Numbered from the stretch's first letter, positions 355 to 40,003 are shown. The stretch is 40,209 bases of DNA from Kayfunavirus T147P5 (OZ035809.1), one strand, 5' to 3'. Made by a program: numbers and translations. The notes: generated by a model from the letters alone, not told the origin.

Positions 355-759
355 ATGGAAGGACAATATTTAAGCGGTGGTTACTATAAAGTAACTATCA
401 ATGGTAAGGTTCACGGGGTTCATCGGGTTAAATGGGAGATGGCGCATGGGCCAGTTCCGGCTGGCTACGTCATTGACCATATAGACCGGAACACTCTGAA
501 CAATGAGCTATCAAACCTAAGGGCAATACCTAAAGGCGCTAATGGTGCTAATACCTTATCGTCTAGAGAGTTACCAAAAGGAGTCTACTCACGGTTCGCT
601 AAAAGGCTTAACGCTACAGTGTACTATGGAGACATACGCATTGGTGGCATCAAGAGAACCCATGAGCCTACTACCAATCTACAGAAAGTTGAGGACTGGG
701 CTAAAGAGGCCCACGCAAATCTTCTTAAGGAGGTGTATGGTGTGGTTAACGTTTATTAA
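355..759 (+). CDS. HNH homing endonuclease
   Basis: RBS AGGAGG 345-350; 134 aa with HGVHRVKWEMAHGPVPAGYVIDHIDRNTLNNELSNLR (classic HNH motif); inserted between terminase small subunit and spanin, overlapping the spanin start. Confidence 0.8.
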   Translation: MEGQYLSGGYYKVTINGKVHGVHRVKWEMAHGPVPAGYVIDHIDRNTLNNELSNLRAIPKGANGANTLSSRELPKGVYSRFAKRLNATVYYGDIRIGGIKRTHEPTTNLQKVEDWAKEAHANLLKEVYGVVNVY

Positions 760-1177
760 GAGAGTGGTCCCTTGGCTAGTGGCAGGACTCCTGTTCGCCT
801 CTGGTTACTGGGTAGCTGACAATAAGTGGGAGGCTAAAGTAAATGAAGAATACATCACGAAACTTGAGGCACGAGAGAGTCAACGAACTGCTATCCAAGC
901 ACGAGTCGATGAAGTCTCAGCGGAGTGGCAGGACAAGATGTCCTCGCTGGAAGGCTCTACTGATAGGATTATTAATGACCTTAACCGCGATAACAGGCGG
1001 CTGCTCGTCAAAGTCAAGACCTCAGGTCTCAGCGAGCCAGATTACAGTAGATGCTTCCCTAATGGTCGAGTCGAACTACACCCAGAGACTTCTAAAAGTC
1101 TTATCCGAATAACGCAAGAAGCTGACCTTAAGGAGAAAGCTTTACAGGAAACCATAAGGAGGTTGCGTGGCGAATAA
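737..1177 (+). CDS. i-spanin (Rz-like, T7 gp18.5-like)
   Basis: ATG 737 with RBS AAGGAGG 725-731; N-terminal TM segment ([17 protein letters not shown]); resembles T7 gp18.5; the ORF-track start at 542 is an in-frame upstream extension without RBS. Confidence 0.8.
843..1112 (+). CDS. o-spanin (Rz1-like lipoprotein, T7 gp18.7-like), embedded in +1 frame of i-spanin
   Basis: Signal/lipobox [14 protein letters not shown]; C-terminal VDASLMVE resembles T7 gp18.7 (VDSSLMVE); fully nested within 737-1177 as in T7. Confidence 0.75.
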   Translation: MKNTSRNLRHERVNELLSKHESMKSQRSGRTRCPRWKALLIGLLMTLTAITGGCSSKSRPQVSASQITVDASLMVESNYTQRLLKVLSE

Positions 1178-2936
1178 GAAAACACCTGCTGAAAGACAGG
1201 CAGAAATGACCCAAAGGATGAGGGATGACTTCGTGTTCTTCATATTCGTTCTATGGAAAGCTCTGAGCCTTCCTGTTCCAACACGCTGCCAGATAGATAT
1301 GTGTAAGAAGCTGGCGGCTGGAGATAATCGACGCTTCATCCTTCAAGCATTCCGTGGTATTGGAAAGTCGTTCCTGACCTGTGGTTTCGTGGTCTGGAAG
1401 TTATGGAATAACCCAGACTTGAAGTTCATGATTGTGTCGGCCTCAAAGGAACGAGCCGATGCGAACTCCATCTTCATCAAGCGTATCATCGACCTCATGC
1501 CTCAGCTTCAGGAACTCAAACCTAAACAGGGGCAGCGAGATGCGGTTATCAGCTTCGACGTGGGACCTGCCAAGCCAGACCACTCACCTTCGGTTAAGTC
1601 CGTTGGTATCACTGGTCAGTTGACTGGTAGTCGTGCTGACATCCTGATTGCCGATGACGTTGAGGTTCCGAACAACTCAGCGACTCAGGCTGCACGAGAC
1701 CGTCTATCAGAGCTTGTGAAAGAGTTCGACGCTATCCTGAAGCCGGGAGGTACGATCATCTATCTGGGTACTCCTCAGAACGAGATGACCCTGTACCGTG
1801 AGCTGGAAGGTCGTGGGTACACCACTACTATCTGGCCCGCTCGTTATCCACGCGACAGGAAGGACTGGCAGTCTTACGGCGACCGTCTGGCTCCTATGCT
1901 TCAGGCAGAGCTGGAAGAGGACCCTGAGTCCTTCTACTGGCGTCCGACTGATGAAGTACGCTTCGATGATACGGACCTGAAGGAACGTGAGCTGTCCTAC
2001 GGTAAAGCTGGATTCGCTCTACAGTTCATGCTTAACCCGAACCTGAGTGATGCCGAGAAGTACCCTCTGAAGCTCCGTGACCTTATCGTAGCCGACTTGG
2101 ACCCAGCGTCCAGCCCAATGGTCTACCAATGGTTGCCAAACCCTCAGAACAAGCGTGAGGACGTTCCTAACGTGGGACTCATGGGTGACTCGTACCACAC
2201 GTATCAGACTGTAGGTTCTGCCTTCAGTTCGTACACCCAGAAGATTCTGGTCATAGACCCTAGTGGTCGTGGTAAGGATGAAACTGGCTATGCGGTACTA
2301 TACCAGCTCAACGGCTATATCTTCGCTATGGAAGTTGGCGGTATGCGTGGTGGCTATGAAGACTCTACGCTGGAAGCCTTGGCTAAGATTGGTCGTAAGT
2401 GGAAGGTCAACGAGTACGTCATTGAGGGTAACTTCGGTGATGGTATGTACCTTGAGTTATTCAAGCCTGTAGCTGCCCGTATCCATCCTGCTGCTGTAAC
2501 TGAAGTGAAGAGTAAGGGTCAGAAAGAACTCCGCATCTGTGACGTTCTGGAGCCTATCATGGGGTCTCACCGACTTATCGTTAACGCTGCTGCTATAGTC
2601 CAAGACTACCAGTCTGCCTCTGATAAGGATGGTGTTCGTAACCCTATCTACTCTCTCTTCTACCAGATGACACGTATCTCTCGTGAACGTGGAGCCTTGG
2701 CACACGATGACCGACTTGATGCGCTGGCTATCGGTGTACAGTTCTTCGTTGAGTCTATGGCTAAGGATGCCAACAAAGGCGAACGTGAAGTCACTGAGGA
2801 GTGGCTGGAGGAACAGATGGAGAACCCACGGAAAGGCTTCGAGTCCATCCACACGGAGTTCTGGGACAATGGGGTCCGGGTAACTCACGATACGGACGAC
2901 GAGCTTGGACTAGGGTCCTACGTTACGTTCCACTAG
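1167..2936 (+). CDS. terminase large subunit (T7 gp19-like)
   Basis: 589 aa; long collinear similarity to T7 gp19 ([77 protein letters not shown]). Confidence 0.95.
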
Positions 2937-3030
2937 CTGAATGAATAACTATAGGCGAAAACTGAATTAATACGCGGTTAGTAACCTATAGTTACTACCA
3001 GTCTAACCTACTGTTTTACAAGGAGTTTGG

Positions 3031-3053
3031 ACTTAACTATCACTATAGGGAAG
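3031..3053 (+). promoter_or_regulatory. phage RNAP promoter (phiOR-like)
   Basis: ACTTAACTATCACTATAGGGAAG; matches the 11-copy consensus; +1 G about 3048; between gene 19 and gene 19.5 as in T7. Confidence 0.8.
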
Positions 3054-3232
3054 ACCCCCGGTTACTTATAGTATTACTGTAGTGAATATACATATGCAGA
3101 CTTTATGCAAGACCTTAGGAGGCAGACTCCGAGTTCTTACCTAAGGCTTGCACCGATGGAAGGAGGGTGATATTAATCATAATCCCTCCAATACAGATAG
3201 TAAAGACCATAGATACAGGAGGTATGTAGCAT

Positions 3233-3391
3233 ATGGCAAAGACCAAAGCTGTACTTAAAGCTCTGGCGACCAATCGAGCTACATACAGGTTTCTTGCTGC
3301 TGTTCTACTTGCTGCTGGCGTTACTGCTGGAAGTCAGTGGGTCGGGTGGGTCGAGACTCTCGTATGTTCTCTGGTCTCTCAGTGTAATTAA
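3233..3391 (+). CDS. gp19.5-like small protein
   Basis: Not in ORF track (52 aa); RBS AGGAGG 3216-3221; MAKTKAVLKALATNRATYRFLAAVLLAAG...LVCSLVSQCN resembles T7 gp19.5 (..RVTYRFLVVL...VVCSIL..); same position after gene 19. Confidence 0.6.
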   Translation: MAKTKAVLKALATNRATYRFLAAVLLAAGVTAGSQWVGWVETLVCSLVSQCN

Positions 3392-3460
3392 CGCAATCAT
3401 GGTAACGATTCATGAGCGGAAGACCTAAGGTCAGTACGTGGATAAAGACTCACTCTACTG

Positions 3461-3599
3461 ACCTTAGCTACTGTAGTCAAGGACTTTAGGTAACACCATT
3501 CAGGCTCTCACCTCTGGTCTACCTACTGATTGGTTCACTGGTCGTCATCCGATGGTCTTAGACCTACGGTCCTTGACCTACAGTAGCTGGTTCCTAAGG
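3461..3599. repeat. imperfect inverted repeat (about 24-bp arms, about 85-bp spacer) just left of the presumed terminal repeat
   Basis: Left arm ACCTTAGCTACTGTAGTCAAGGAC (3461-3484) vs right arm GTCCTTGACCTACAGTAGCTGGT (3569-3591), reverse-complementary with one indel and one mismatch. Confidence 0.5.
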
Positions 3600-3637
3600 A
3601 GGGACGATGAGTTTTGGACCAAAAGTTTGAGACCACA

Positions 3638-3826
3638 TCTCACAGTTCAAGAACCTCAAGTCTCCCCATAGGCCATCTTTCAGTCCAGACCAAAGGCCCT
3701 ACCCCAGTCTATCATAAGGTTAGACCGATGGTCAAGACTTCAGGTCAACGATAGGTTGTGGCTATGGCTTAGGGAAGGACGATAGGTAGGGACTATGGGT
3801 CTGTCTTTGAGTCTCTATCTGTATCA
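3638..3826. repeat. probable direct terminal repeat (single collapsed copy) containing the physical genome ends
   Basis: Begins TCTCACAGTTCAAGAACCTCAAGTCTCCCCATAGG, closely resembling the first bases of the T7 genome (recalled); 246 bp downstream of gene 19.5; end near CTATCTGTATCAG is approximate. Confidence 0.45.
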
Positions 3827-3910
3827 GACCATAAGTCACTAACCTACAGTCTCACTAACCTACAGTCTCAACCATAAGACACCAACACCTACAGTCATAG
3901 ACCTACAGTT
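3827..3910. repeat. short direct-repeat array (ACCTACAGT units)
   Basis: ACCTACAGT at 3842, 3858, 3887, 3901 with tandem 16-bp CTCACTAACCTACAGT x2; analogous to the CCTAAAG-type arrays after the T7 terminal repeat. Confidence 0.5.
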
Positions 3911-4020
3911 ACTAGACACAAAGCTATAGACTTAAGGTCTAAGACATGTTAGTCAAAGACTATATCCTCTTACACCATGGGGCCGACGATAGCTTAATCA
4001 ATATTATTTCAAATTACCTA

Positions 4021-4049
4021 TTGACTATAGGTCCAGACTATGGCCTAAT
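4021..4049 (+). promoter_or_regulatory. candidate host sigma70 early promoter (T7 A1-like)
   Basis: -35 TTGACT (4021-4026), 17-bp spacer, -10 CCTAAT/CTAATA (4044-4050); resembles T7 A1 architecture (TTGACT-17-GATACT). Confidence 0.45.
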
Positions 4050-4161
4050 AGCTTACGTCAACACGACACGGCAACAACCGGATAGTGAAGACGCCGGGTC
4101 ATCCCGGTTAAGTAGACAGCCTGATAAGTCATACGAAAAACAGGCAGATGACAGAAAGTAG

Positions 4162-4191
4162 TTGACAAGCAGTAACGATAAGATGTAAGCT
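4162..4191 (+). promoter_or_regulatory. A2/A3-like promoter remnant (TTGACA ... TAAGAT) with non-canonical spacing
   Basis: TTGACA 4162-4167 and TAAGAT 4179-4184 separated by only 11 bp; alternative -10 TAAGCT at 18 bp is weak. Confidence 0.25.
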
Positions 4192-4306
4192 GTACCACAT
4201 CGAAACAACGGTGACGACCGACACTGAAACGGTCTACCTGAAGTCCTCTGACTGAAGGGAATGCTCTTTAACAATCTGGATAAACTCTTAATGTGCGCCG
4301 ATAGCG

Positions 4307-4378
4307 ACTAACTACAGGGTCTTTGAGTCTACATCTGAAGGCCCTGGCTGATAGTCACTAACTTAACGGATGGACACT
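4307..4378 (+). promoter_or_regulatory. conserved early intergenic element E1 (probable RNA processing/regulatory site)
   Basis: GACTAACTACAGGG...GGCCCTGGCTGATAGTCACTAAC; diverged copy of E2/E3; immediately precedes first early ORF. Confidence 0.4.
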
Positions 4379-4624
4379 ATGAAACACTTAAGCACAATCA
4401 CTAATCACAATGAAGTATTCGTGAACACTAAAGGTTATGCGTGGATTCAGCTTAAAGAGATGAGAGGAGCGCGTCACCGTGTGGTAGTTCGCAAGGTATC
4501 AAGCAAGCCGTTCAGCAACTACAGCGTAGATATTGTGCGTATAGACAACGAGACTTACCTGATAGACTCGCAGATAACCGTGAGTCCTACAGCGGGCATC
4601 TCAGCTCCTTATTTCGCTAACTGA
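4370..4624 (+). CDS. hypothetical early protein
   Basis: 84-aa ORF; alternative start ATG 4379 fits the RBS spacing seen for E2/E3; first gene after the host-promoter region. Confidence 0.6.
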   Translation: MDTMKHLSTITNHNEVFVNTKGYAWIQLKEMRGARHRVVVRKVSSKPFSNYSVDIVRIDNETYLIDSQITVSPTAGISAPYFAN

Positions 4625-37528: not shown

Positions 37529-40003
37529 ATGGCTGCAACATTCAATGACTATCCAATACAAGGCACTCAGTACCGAGTAGAGTTCCCATACTTAGCACGA
37601 CCATTCGTCCTTGTATACCTAACGTCCTCAGACCCTCTGGTAGCTCCTCTCCTACTTAGACTTAACTCAGAGTACACTTTCATGTCACCATATCTGATTA
37701 ATATCAGTGTTGCTATGGCTGGATATAATGGAGTACGTTTAGTCCGACAGACATCCTCAACACCGTTAGTAAACTTTGTAGATAGCTCAGCACTAACCGC
37801 TGGAGACCTCACAGTTGCCGAGGTTCAATCTATCCATATTGCAGAGGAGGCAAGGGACCAAACCTTCTCAATGACCAAGGAGATGGTAGACGCAGCACGG
37901 GCTTATCTTGATGAGATTGAGAAAGCGCTAGAGGAGATAAACAAGATTCTGGCAAACGGCTTCAATCCTGTAGGGTCGTTCGAGTCTGGTGCTGAAGTAA
38001 CGATTCGAAATGACACGGTTAGCTTAGGGTTCGGTTCATCCATTCAGTATTTCCAGTGGTGGGGTCAATTACCAAAAACTGTACCAGCGGGTTCAACACC
38101 AGAGTCAACTGGTGGATTAGGTAAAGGTAAATGGGTCCCAGTAGGTGATGGTCAGTTGCGCTCTGAGATTACTGTTCTGGACAGTATTAAGGACCTATTG
38201 TCATCTGCACAGGGTCTTGGTACTGTGCGTTCTGTAAAGGGGTACATCTCAGGTACAGACTTCGGTGGTGGTGACTTCTTGTGGGACCCAACATGTCCAC
38301 GGTCTAAACATAACGGCATCACAATATTCAGCCCAACGGTTCCATTCAGCGGCCTGTACGCAGACGTTCCGAGTTTCCACGCAGGGGTAGGAGAAACAGC
38401 ACCTGCCGAGACTGGCTGCTGGAGACGTAAGGATTGTGGACGTAAGCTATTACTGGCTTGGGGTGGAGTGGATGTATCTGGTACTCAACCAGTTGACGCT
38501 ATCTTGACTAGCATGTGTTCGTATGCACACAACACACGTCAGATTCTTGACGCAGAACCTAATGATGAACTTCAGGCTGGATTCTCGACAGGGACTCAAA
38601 CAAAGGATAAGTTCAACGGCTTCACCCAAGCGTCTGTCGTGCTAGAGAATAAGTACGTCACCCTTAGAGGTAACGGAGCTAAGATTAAGACCTATCACCC
38701 AATCCACAAGGAGCGCTCTGTGTTTGTCCTACGAAATGGTGGATATAACATCTCAGGGTTCAAATGGAACGATGGGTATACTGATTTCAGCATAGCACCG
38801 TCTGATACGCAGCATAAGCAGGGTGAATGGTGGCTTGGAATAGTTGCGGATGGCGGTGTAACTCTTGTGGCTGAAGACAACGAAGTAACTGCTGCGCAAT
38901 ACTTTGTCAGGGCTGATGTATTCAATGGTACGTCATGGAATGAGCGTGTATCGGTGCGCAAGAATAAATTCGCATATGTAACGAACTACTGCTTCCTTAG
39001 CCGCAAGCTTCGTCACTATGAGTTTAGTTACAACGAGGTTAGACACAATGGTAGGGAGTGGCATACCTATGGTGAAGCCTGTGCTCCTACTACCTATACC
39101 ACACACTCTGTTATCAGGAGTAATAACTTCTACAATCAGATTGCAATCCAATCGTGTATAACACCCGGTTCATACCACGAGTCGTGTTTAATCGTGAACA
39201 ATCACTGCGAGAGATATCAGGGTATCTTTGTAGAGATTGGGTCATCTAGCAATATTAGCATCCTAAATAACAGCTCCTATTCAACTGGAGAACGTAACGG
39301 GGCGCACATATTGTTGGTATCAGGAGATGTTGATGATGAACCTGCTGGAGGACTGAGTAACCTAATCATCAATGGTAACGTGTTTAAAGGTGGTGGTATG
39401 GTCGTGCGCGAGTATAACACTGGTACGCCAAAACGGTGGGGTATTTCGATTACCAATAACCACATGATTGACTGCCCTCTACCCACAATGACCAACTCTG
39501 CCTACAACTGCATAACTTTCTCAGGAAACTACTGTGAGCCGCCAGCGGACTTCCCGTTCCTTGCGATTGGTGGTAGGAATCCAATTATCGAGAATAACGT
39601 CCTACGAGGAGTGTCTATTAAGATGAGGGACTTAGGGTATCACATCGTAGGACTAACAGTTAGGAACAATAAGTTTGTGGACGGCGCTACTGTGCAGAAC
39701 TTCACTGCTGCAATCGACATGAACTATTACTCCAGACTTGTGGCTGAAGGTAACGACTTCACGGAATACACCTGTCAGTCAATCTTAGCACTTCCTATTA
39801 ACTCAGTTGAGGTGGGCTTCCACAGACTTGGCTCGGCAGAAGGACTTAAGGATACTCCTACTGCGTTATTTGGTGCAAAACTTACTGACGCATTTGCTGG
39901 AGATTTTGTGGCATGTTCCGACCCGCTGTCAAAAGGCGCATATGGATGGGTTATGATGAATGAACCTAATAAAACTTGGGGCAAGATTAACCTAACAACG
40001 TAA
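37529..40003 (+). CDS. tail spike: T7 gp17-like N-terminal adaptor domain fused to a large beta-helix (putative polysaccharide depolymerase) C-terminal domain
   Basis: 824 aa; N-terminal about 150 aa (RVEFPYLARPFV, DLTVAEVQSIHIAEEARD) resemble T7 gp17 N-terminus; remainder has repeated IxxNN/GN strands (LIINGNVFKGG, ISITNNHMIDC, IIENNVLRGVSI, LTVRNNKFVDG). Confidence 0.85.
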   Translation: MAATFNDYPIQGTQYRVEFPYLARPFVLVYLTSSDPLVAPLLLRLNSEYTFMSPYLINISVAMAGYNGVRLVRQTSSTPLVNFVDSSALTAGDLTVAEVQSIHIAEEARDQTFSMTKEMVDAARAYLDEIEKALEEINKILANGFNPVGSFESGAEVTIRNDTVSLGFGSSIQYFQWWGQLPKTVPAGSTPESTGGLGKGKWVPVGDGQLRSEITVLDSIKDLLSSAQGLGTVRSVKGYISGTDFGGGDFLWDPTCPRSKHNGITIFSPTVPFSGLYADVPSFHAGVGETAPAETGCWRRKDCGRKLLLAWGGVDVSGTQPVDAILTSMCSYAHNTRQILDAEPNDELQAGFSTGTQTKDKFNGFTQASVVLENKYVTLRGNGAKIKTYHPIHKERSVFVLRNGGYNISGFKWNDGYTDFSIAPSDTQHKQGEWWLGIVADGGVTLVAEDNEVTAAQYFVRADVFNGTSWNERVSVRKNKFAYVTNYCFLSRKLRHYEFSYNEVRHNGREWHTYGEACAPTTYTTHSVIRSNNFYNQIAIQSCITPGSYHESCLIVNNHCERYQGIFVEIGSSSNISILNNSSYSTGERNGAHILLVSGDVDDEPAGGLSNLIINGNVFKGGGMVVREYNTGTPKRWGISITNNHMIDCPLPTMTNSAYNCITFSGNYCEPPADFPFLAIGGRNPIIENNVLRGVSIKMRDLGYHIVGLTVRNNKFVDGATVQNFTAAIDMNYYSRLVAEGNDFTEYTCQSILALPINSVEVGFHRLGSAEGLKDTPTALFGAKLTDAFAGDFVACSDPLSKGAYGWVMMNEPNKTWGKINLTT

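Follow-up and report, generated by a model that had tools for sequence, protein, structure and literature searches.

An inverted repeat beside the terminal repeat of Kayfunavirus genomes and its plausible role in the maturation of genome ends

Each concatemer junction of the T7-type phages holds a single terminal repeat (TR) whereas each packaged genome needs two, so that maturation requires a second copy of the TR and a cut at the right end. The models of TR duplication outlined in one account include nicking, strand displacement and primed synthesis, and the same account mentions hairpin-ended DNA containing the TR that was seen in T7 infection (PMC4281155). A preceding sequence-only reading of the DNA analyzed here took the maturation of the T7 right end as known to depend on a hairpin-forming sequence immediately to the left of the concatemer junction, which overstates the case: for the T7 hairpin, the title of the original report goes no further than "may be an intermediate" (Chung, Nardone & Hinkle 1990, J Mol Biol 216:939).

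The ends of the T7 genome also carry copies of a short motif, CCTAARG, namely four to the left of the right TR, four inside the TR and eight to the right of the left TR, with all 16 located within ~350 bp of the ends and on the plus strand. The short repeats that flank the T7 TR are said to have been named SRL and SRR by Dunn and Studier in 1983, and the T7 hairpin end was reportedly mapped, in the 1990 work, at an inverted repeat about 190 bp to the left of the TR.

Genome context and the non-coding module next to the terminal repeat

The window, that is, the entire stretch of 40,209 nt that was analyzed, is a circularly permuted Kayfunavirus genome (K1F-like, T7 family; Autographiviridae, Studiervirinae). 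Its region 3000-4400 matches 393 phage records in a megablast search, and the best matches are Escherichia and Salmonella phages of Kayfunavirus. The homologs of gene 19.5, the final gene before the genome end (Table 1), are annotated as gp19.5 in LS2, Dev2 and EcoDS1, and a Pfam search with the gene 19.5 product yielded no match. A phiOR promoter is annotated in T7, T3 and K11 at the relative position equivalent to that of the phiOR-like promoter of the window, from which transcription would be expected to run through the inverted repeat (IR) described below. Upstream of the terminase gene, a 134-aa ORF (355-759, plus strand) encodes an HNH endonuclease (Pfam HNH_3, E = 2e-17), probably a homing enzyme whose gene was inserted into the late region. 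In genomes of the K1F type, one more small ORF, MDEESYGSFSEEDYKTEWEYAH, follows gene 19.5 and precedes hairpin 1 (in K1F, L002 351-419), and its stop codon marks the start of the conserved non-coding module.

The sequence-only reading had presumed a terminal repeat at this place, rightly so because the annotated repeats and record ends of the relatives coincide at 3638. The sequence TCTCACAG at this position is the annotated or implied TR start of K1F, EPr2, GA2A, SH4, EcoDS1 and MopsHU1, the records of LS2, YZ1 and Kc166A stop one base before it, and the left ends of K1F and of T7-like genomes generally read TCTCACAGTTCAAG, as does the window at 3638; the terminal repeat of SH4 was determined by sequencing off the ends (PMC4925675). 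The right boundary of the TR probably lies at ~3815, as judged from the right end of K1F. The sequence ATCTGTA (3816-3822) adjoins the TR end, and T7 has ATCTGTT after its own repeat (161-167), the class II pause signal at its concatemer junctions.

Table 1. Features around the right end of the window
Feature	Position	Strand	Remarks
Gene 19 (terminase large subunit)	1167-2936		ORF list
phiOR-like phage RNA polymerase promoter	3031-3053	+	ACTTAACTATCACTATAGGGAAG; similar to the consensus of K1F promoters given in the ASO2B record
Gene 19.5	3233-3391	+	52 aa; final gene before the genome end; ORF list
Hairpin 1	3425-3467		perfect 12-bp stem (3425-3436 / 3456-3467), 19-nt loop; positional counterpart of the T7/T3/K11 palindrome
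IR arm 1	3466-3491		self-comparison; two inverted short-motif copies and a linker
AGTCAA anchor, inside IR arm 1	3475-3480	+	invariant in Kayfunavirus (alignment A1) and in T7, T3 and K11 (alignment A3)
IR spacer	3492-3561		variable in sequence and length; indels and substitutions in the alignment of relatives
IR arm 2	3562-3588		two direct motif copies, ACCTACGGT and ACCTACAGT
Variable segment, arm 2 to pre-TR box	3589-3605		small local hairpin (3590-3605) in the lineage of the window only
Pre-TR box	3606-3637		CGATGAGTTTTGGACCAAAAGTTTGAGACCACA; palindrome TTTTGG-A-CCAAAA at 3612-3624; identity 0.96
Direct terminal repeat	3638-3815		one collapsed copy in the circular permutation; start from annotated repeats of relatives, end from the K1F right terminus
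Direct motif-copy array right of TR	3836-3910	+	ACCTACAGT at 3842, 3858, 3887 and 3901; counterpart of the T7 short repeats

To the left of the TR, the elements are arranged in the order hairpin 1, AGTCAA, long IR, pre-TR box and TR. Two neighboring elements of this conserved non-coding module, which extends from gene 19.5 to the TR, can fold back, and the long IR is the second of them. Homologous stretches were collected from 25 phage records, IMG/VR and metagenomes, being anchored on conserved sequence outside the arms; many of the metagenome matches to the pre-TR box were chance or unrelated ones and were taken out of the alignment by eye, and the conservation statistics of the genus refer to the resulting alignment A1 of 43 distinct Kayfunavirus sequences.

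Hairpin 1 ties for the second place among the inverted repeats of the whole genome and folds as DNA with -11.3 kcal/mol (z = -5.7). Eleven of its 12 pairs are invariant in all 43 relatives, with mean pairwise identities of 0.96 for the 5' arm and 1.00 for the 3' arm, and the loop comes in three unrelated variants, each with its own apical mini-stem. It is the 5' half of the loop that exists in three unrelated versions; the 3' half, ACTCTAC (site 3450-3455), is invariant in the genus, which pairing does not explain. The center of hairpin 1 is 192 bp away from the TR in the window (range in the genus 154-194, mode 184).

The pre-TR box, with counterparts directly to the left of the TR in T7, T3, K11, gh-1 and Berlin, is a candidate for the cleavage or recognition sequence of the right end. 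Nearly identical copies of 30 nt of this box were also detected in metagenome contigs from a different phage group (L110; L121, about 2085-2125, minus strand; L126), where they come right after a small hydrophobic ORF and are followed by unrelated sequence. The local helix 3590-3605, between arm 2 and the box, is paired in just 43% of the alignment cells, and the small hairpins at 3590-3605 and 3612-3624 yielded no covariation signal among the 43 relatives.

Several other readings of this stretch were rejected. An intrinsic terminator was discounted because neither hairpin 1 nor arm 2 is followed by a T run; the sole terminator-like site (3590-3605) sits in the non-conserved segment, and the count of such sites is no higher than in shuffled sequences. 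The curated records of T7, T3, K11, K1F and EcoDS1 contain no CDS between gene 19.5 and the TR, and the spacer has non-triplet indels, so that a coding function was rejected. At 3596-3631, a strong Shine-Dalgarno-like sequence, AAGGAGG, precedes a 7-codon ORF (MSFGPKV*) that runs over the pre-TR box; this Shine-Dalgarno sequence is restricted to the lineage of the window rather than conserved, so that the ORF is probably no gene. In GenBank records such as MF630921 (phage IMM-002), PP856720 and PQ336914, automatic annotation has put 'hypothetical protein' calls on the homologous non-coding stretch, and calls of '50S ribosomal protein L31' and 'AC4 protein' occur there as well. A search of 2900-4400 against Rfam (E <= 1) yielded no match.

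Structure and conservation of the long inverted repeat

Gapped self-comparison joins the two arms into a single IR in which 24 of the 27 aligned columns are complementary, with one 1-nt bulge (C3577). The structure comprises a perfect outer stem of 11 bp (3466-3476 / 3578-3588), a second stem of 8 bp past the bulge (3477-3484 / 3569-3576) and, after a T.G pair and a mismatch, 5 bp in the inner part (3487-3491 / 3562-3566); the spacer of the full arms is 70 nt, and the distance from the end of arm 2 to the TR start, 50 nt. The reverse complementarity had been recognized in the sequence-only reading, which placed the arms at 3461-3484 and 3569-3591, thus capturing the outer two-thirds of the IR, together with three more pairs (ACC/GGT) across a 2-nt bulge beyond the full IR, but leaving out the inner pairs. 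The separation of about 85 bp that it gave is accurate for those arms, and the position to the left of the TR stands as well; the distance, given there as ~40 bp, is 46 nt from 3591 and 50 nt from 3588.

Among the inverted repeats with a span of up to 250 nt in the whole window, this one has the top score, 16, compared to genome-wide maxima of 10 to 14 in 40 dinucleotide-preserving shuffles of the genome. Folding of 3440-3640 as DNA, the check suggested in the sequence-only reading, gives z = -2.45, and the 123 nt of 3466-3588, folded as single-stranded DNA, reach -23.2 kcal/mol (z = -4.6, with none of the 200 shuffles as good). The IR is accordingly non-random and stable as a fold-back, and in folding back as single-stranded DNA beyond chance, it behaves as a T7-type processing hairpin should.

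The arms are made of short motifs. The CCTAMRG motif flanks the TR in the window, as it does in T7; the extended form ACCTAMRGT has 16 matches in the window against 1.2 expected, and 8 of these are located within 3423-3909, four on each side of the TR. In its excess and in its clustering to the left and right of the TR, the motif resembles the T7 short-repeat arrays. Unlike those arrays, in which all copies are direct, arm 1 carries inverted copies, namely a clean minus-strand copy at 3483-3491 and a degenerate one (degenerate inverted copies fall within 3456-3479), and these inverted copies create the IR. The complementarity also spans the linker CTT and the flank AGCT, which are outside the motif, and the two internal mismatches coincide with the variable core of the motif. 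Because the linker and the flank are included, the IR is an inverted duplication of a 27-nt unit that holds two CCTAMRG copies, rather than a mere coincidence of motifs.

The mean pairwise identity among the 43 relatives is 0.96 for arm 1 and 0.91 for arm 2, compared to 0.78 for the spacer (0.51 when the relatives are compared to the window) and 0.67 for the segment 3589-3605. Given the high identity of the arms while the spacer drifts, the arms are subject to purifying selection. In 40 relatives, arm 2 ends 49-53 nt short of the TR.

The pairs of the IR are formed in 97% of the alignment cells, almost only because the columns are invariant. No compensatory variation was detected in the IR among the 43 relatives, with a covariation score barely above that of shuffles, and the sole cell that changed on both sides belongs to a lineage that lacks the IR (contig L108). 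All 15 types of substitutions in the arms are uncompensated and comprise 4 G.T, 3 A.C and 8 transversion mismatches; at the pair 3469/3585, T.G is the commonest state in the genus (27 of the 43 sequences). In the absence of compensatory changes, pairing is inseparable from a constraint on the sequence itself.

Conservation is not universal in the genus. Escherichia phage IMM-002 (L008) and contig L108 have lost the IR, with 11-12 Watson-Crick pairs out of 25, and IMM-002 is an isolated lytic phage that is viable without it. In EcoDS1, the CR44b-like phages and MopsHU1, the IR is reduced to a 10-bp outer stem, and a 12-nt deletion in arm 2 shortens it in L099; in L128, a 1-nt insertion abolishes the bulge, resulting in a perfect 20-bp stem. 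Beyond the genus, the more distant Autographiviridae loci (L009-L022) contain only genus-specific inverted repeats of 11-16 nt that cannot be aligned with the IR of the window. The sequence-only reading had named two observations that would speak against its proposal, lack of conservation in relatives and termini far from the repeat. Most of the genus retains both arms, but the losses, erosion and deletion just described go part of the way towards the former, whereas the latter does not apply, with the TR only 50 nt away from arm 2.

Comparison with T7, T3, K11 and other phages

We aligned the spacers between gene 19.5 and the TR of the window, K1F, T7, T3 and K11 using MAFFT (alignment A3). 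In this alignment, hairpin 1 is placed over the palindrome AGGGATTC..CATCCCT of T7, T3 and K11, and the other anchors are the invariant AGTCAA just past hairpin 1 and the pre-TR box together with the start of the TR. The T7 palindrome (39,568-39,608) has 19-nt arms and a 3-nt loop, with the center 190 bp to the left of the TR, and the structure predicted for T3 matches that of T7. The eight differences between the T7 and T3 stems make up four compensatory pairs; because four pairs changed on both sides and none was broken, the palindrome is a selected structure.

The long IR begins only past the palindrome of T7, T3 and K11 and does not correspond in position to T7 39,568-39,608. The parallel with the T7 hairpin that the sequence-only reading drew for the IR thus goes to a different element, and hairpin 1, not the long IR, is the closer counterpart of the T7 palindrome. 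The same would hold for the T7 hairpin end, if its reported mapping is right. Both phages belong to the same virus subfamily and share the same architecture, with an inverted repeat located in the non-coding DNA that separates gene 19.5 from the right TR, and in both cases extension of the fold-back would copy the TR. The long IR of the window differs in that it has a 70-nt spacer, is specific to the genus and is much stronger than what is found at the equivalent position of T7.

A second inverted repeat downstream of AGTCAA is present in every genus examined, with 10 of 12 positions complementary and a 35-nt spacer in T7, where the arms are at 39,620-39,631 and 39,667-39,678, 12 of 16 and 30 nt in T3, 12 of 15 and 89 nt in Berlin, and 20 of 23 and 45 nt in K11 (L102 588-610 / 656-678). 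Only those of K11 and Kayfunavirus are clearly beyond chance; T7 has no comparable long-range IR, and the inverted repeats of T7 and T3 at the equivalent place are weak. Klebsiella phage K11 (Przondovirus) shares with the window the palindrome, AGTCAA, an arm 1 directly after it and an arm 2 that abuts the pre-TR box, and the K11 arms are nearly invariant in 11 K11-like relatives. The two differ in the outer arm sequences and in the distance from the end of arm 2 to the TR, 24 nt in K11 versus 50 nt in the window. The innermost pairs, AGGT/ACCT, look homologous between K11 and Kayfunavirus while the outer stems differ, and this is the sole hint of compensation, at the between-genus level only. 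To our knowledge, the long-range IR of K11 has not been described.

The spacers between gene 19.5 and the TR of six genera fold better than shuffled sequences on both strands, as expected of an inverted repeat that functions at the DNA level; the z values are approximate because they come from 40 shuffles by swapping, a weaker procedure. With the same approximation, the IMM-002 spacer folds least well (z about -1.4 as RNA).

Possible functions of the inverted repeat

Because an inverted repeat anywhere to the left of the TR is geometrically suited to the task, we favor, tentatively and at somewhat less than an even chance, a function of the IR at the DNA level, in concatemer maturation, over any other single explanation; involvement of the IR in cutting and copying the genome ends is plausible. 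Under this explanation, the bottom strand to the left of the TR would become single-stranded through a nick and strand displacement or, alternatively, through transcription or replication from phiOR, and the exposed IR could form a fold-back stem of about 25 bp. Either the 3' end or the folded structure as such would be directed to the right, across the pre-TR box and the TR, and could serve as a primer or a landmark for the copying of the TR and for the terminase cut 50 nt downstream. Hairpin 1 might be the conserved core of this arrangement, and the long IR, no longer present in some members, might reinforce it at the genus level. The conserved arms, the maintained distance to the TR and the topology shared with K11 are compatible with this role; the lack of compensation, the loss or erosion of the IR in several lineages and the weakness of the T7 and T3 counterparts count against it. 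Furthermore, a 70-nt spacer is unfavorable to cruciform extrusion from duplex DNA. In PhageMaP, most of the insertion sites at the T7 genome ends are non-essential, which also weighs against this role. The concatemer-processing hairpin of the sequence-only reading is thus favored by the location, stability and conservation in most of the genus, but not by the lack of covariation, the losses or the better match of hairpin 1 to T7.

The near-invariance of the arms, their uncompensated changes and the viability of IMM-002, which has a direct copy in place of the inner inverted one, best fit a different possibility, namely that the motif array is bound as duplex DNA by a packaging or replication protein, for example, the terminase small subunit, with the pairing being incidental. 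Here, the CCTAMRG copies and the AGTCAA anchor would be recognized, and the inverted orientation would give rise to a symmetric or looped complex. The clustering of the over-represented motif around the TR and the presence of members of this motif family within the T7 TR and on either side of it are in line with such binding. Complementarity that continues through the non-motif linker and flank, with two mismatches in the motif cores, is hard to reconcile with it, as is the retention of the IR topology in K11 with a different outer sequence; all T7 copies are direct, so that inversion is needless for the function of the motif, and we are aware of no protein that binds the motif. On the whole, we consider recognition of this kind unlikely, though worth serious attention. 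Alternatively, the IR might act in RNA, in late transcripts that would reach it from the phiOR-like promoter and from promoters farther upstream, hairpin 1 and the ~25-bp IR stem being cut by host RNase III or blocking 3' exonucleases and thereby defining or stabilizing the 3' end of the last late mRNAs. As RNA, 3395-3640 folds with -92 kcal/mol (z = -5.05) into the adjacent helices of hairpin 1 and the IR, the near-perfect 11+8-bp stem amounts to about two helical turns with 5 bp more inward, the most frequent variant of the genus, a U.G wobble, is tolerated in RNA, and no terminator separates the phiOR-like promoter from the IR, the transcription itself being inferred. In gh-1, a stem-loop that follows the last gene and precedes the TR carries the annotation of a putative RNase III site, and the RNase III sites of T7-group late mRNAs, of which this would be an example, resemble the IR in being long irregular helices in transcribed intergenic regions. 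The IR differs from these sites in showing neither covariation nor strand asymmetry and in matching no curated RNA family: the minus strand folds equally well in all genera, and the wobble test of RNA versus DNA function was uninformative, with plus-strand wobbles in no excess over A.C mismatches (4 versus 3 event types). Near-invariance of both arms would be unusual for an RNA helix at such divergence, and, as far as we know, none of the ten mapped T7 RNase III sites is located after gene 19.5. We consider a function in RNA about as likely as the protein-bound array, that is, unlikely but worth serious attention as well.

The invariant block formed by the 3' part of hairpin 1 and arm 1 could also contain a leftward sigma-70 host promoter similar to T7 A0, with the IR as a by-product. 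On the minus strand, TTGACT (3480-3475) is followed, after 17 nt, by TAGAGT (3457-3452), resembling the TTGACT-N17-TAGGCT of A0, the annotated leftward E. coli promoter at nt 224 of T7, and such a promoter would account for the invariant ACTCTAC in the loop of hairpin 1. We regard this as improbable: only 9 of the 12 consensus positions match, 5 such sites occur in the region against 3.2 expected, T7 and T3 lack a usable -10 element at the homologous place, the conservation of arm 2 is left unexplained, and the leftward transcript, antisense to gene 19.5, would have no obvious use. Complementarity that arose by chance and has no function is very improbable indeed. By simple arithmetic, a 40-kb genome should contain about two perfect 11-bp inverted repeats within 200 nt, but the full IR beats all 40 shuffled genomes and is kept in most of the 43 distinct relatives while the flanks drift, which disfavors chance.

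Extending the preferred maturation role to the T7 family at large, one could envisage a fold-back module of two hairpins to the left of the TR, with an invariant palindrome and a long IR built of inverted short-motif copies, the outer sequence of which turned over between genera (Kayfunavirus versus the K11-like phages) while the topology was kept; this module would prime or position TR duplication in displaced single-stranded DNA. This generalization is speculative, and we consider it rather doubtful. If it is true, the loss of the IR in IMM-002 and its perfection in L128 would be ready-made variants for the hairpin model of 1990.

An inverted repeat at this place is in itself unsurprising within a well-known genome architecture. 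The hairpin intermediate of 1990, however, remains a model of how T7-family phages regenerate two TRs from a single junction copy. The K1F-like phages have two fold-back elements beside the TR and the K11-like phages have an analogous pair; one element is deeply conserved and covaries between T7 and T3, and the second is restricted to the genus and, among sequenced isolates, occurs naturally in an intact, perfect or eroded form or is missing. For annotators, there is a caution: many records carry calls of small 'hypothetical proteins' at this place, and these lie on non-coding, putatively end-processing sequence. Concrete coordinates and natural variants are now at hand for a packaging or snap-back DNA assay.
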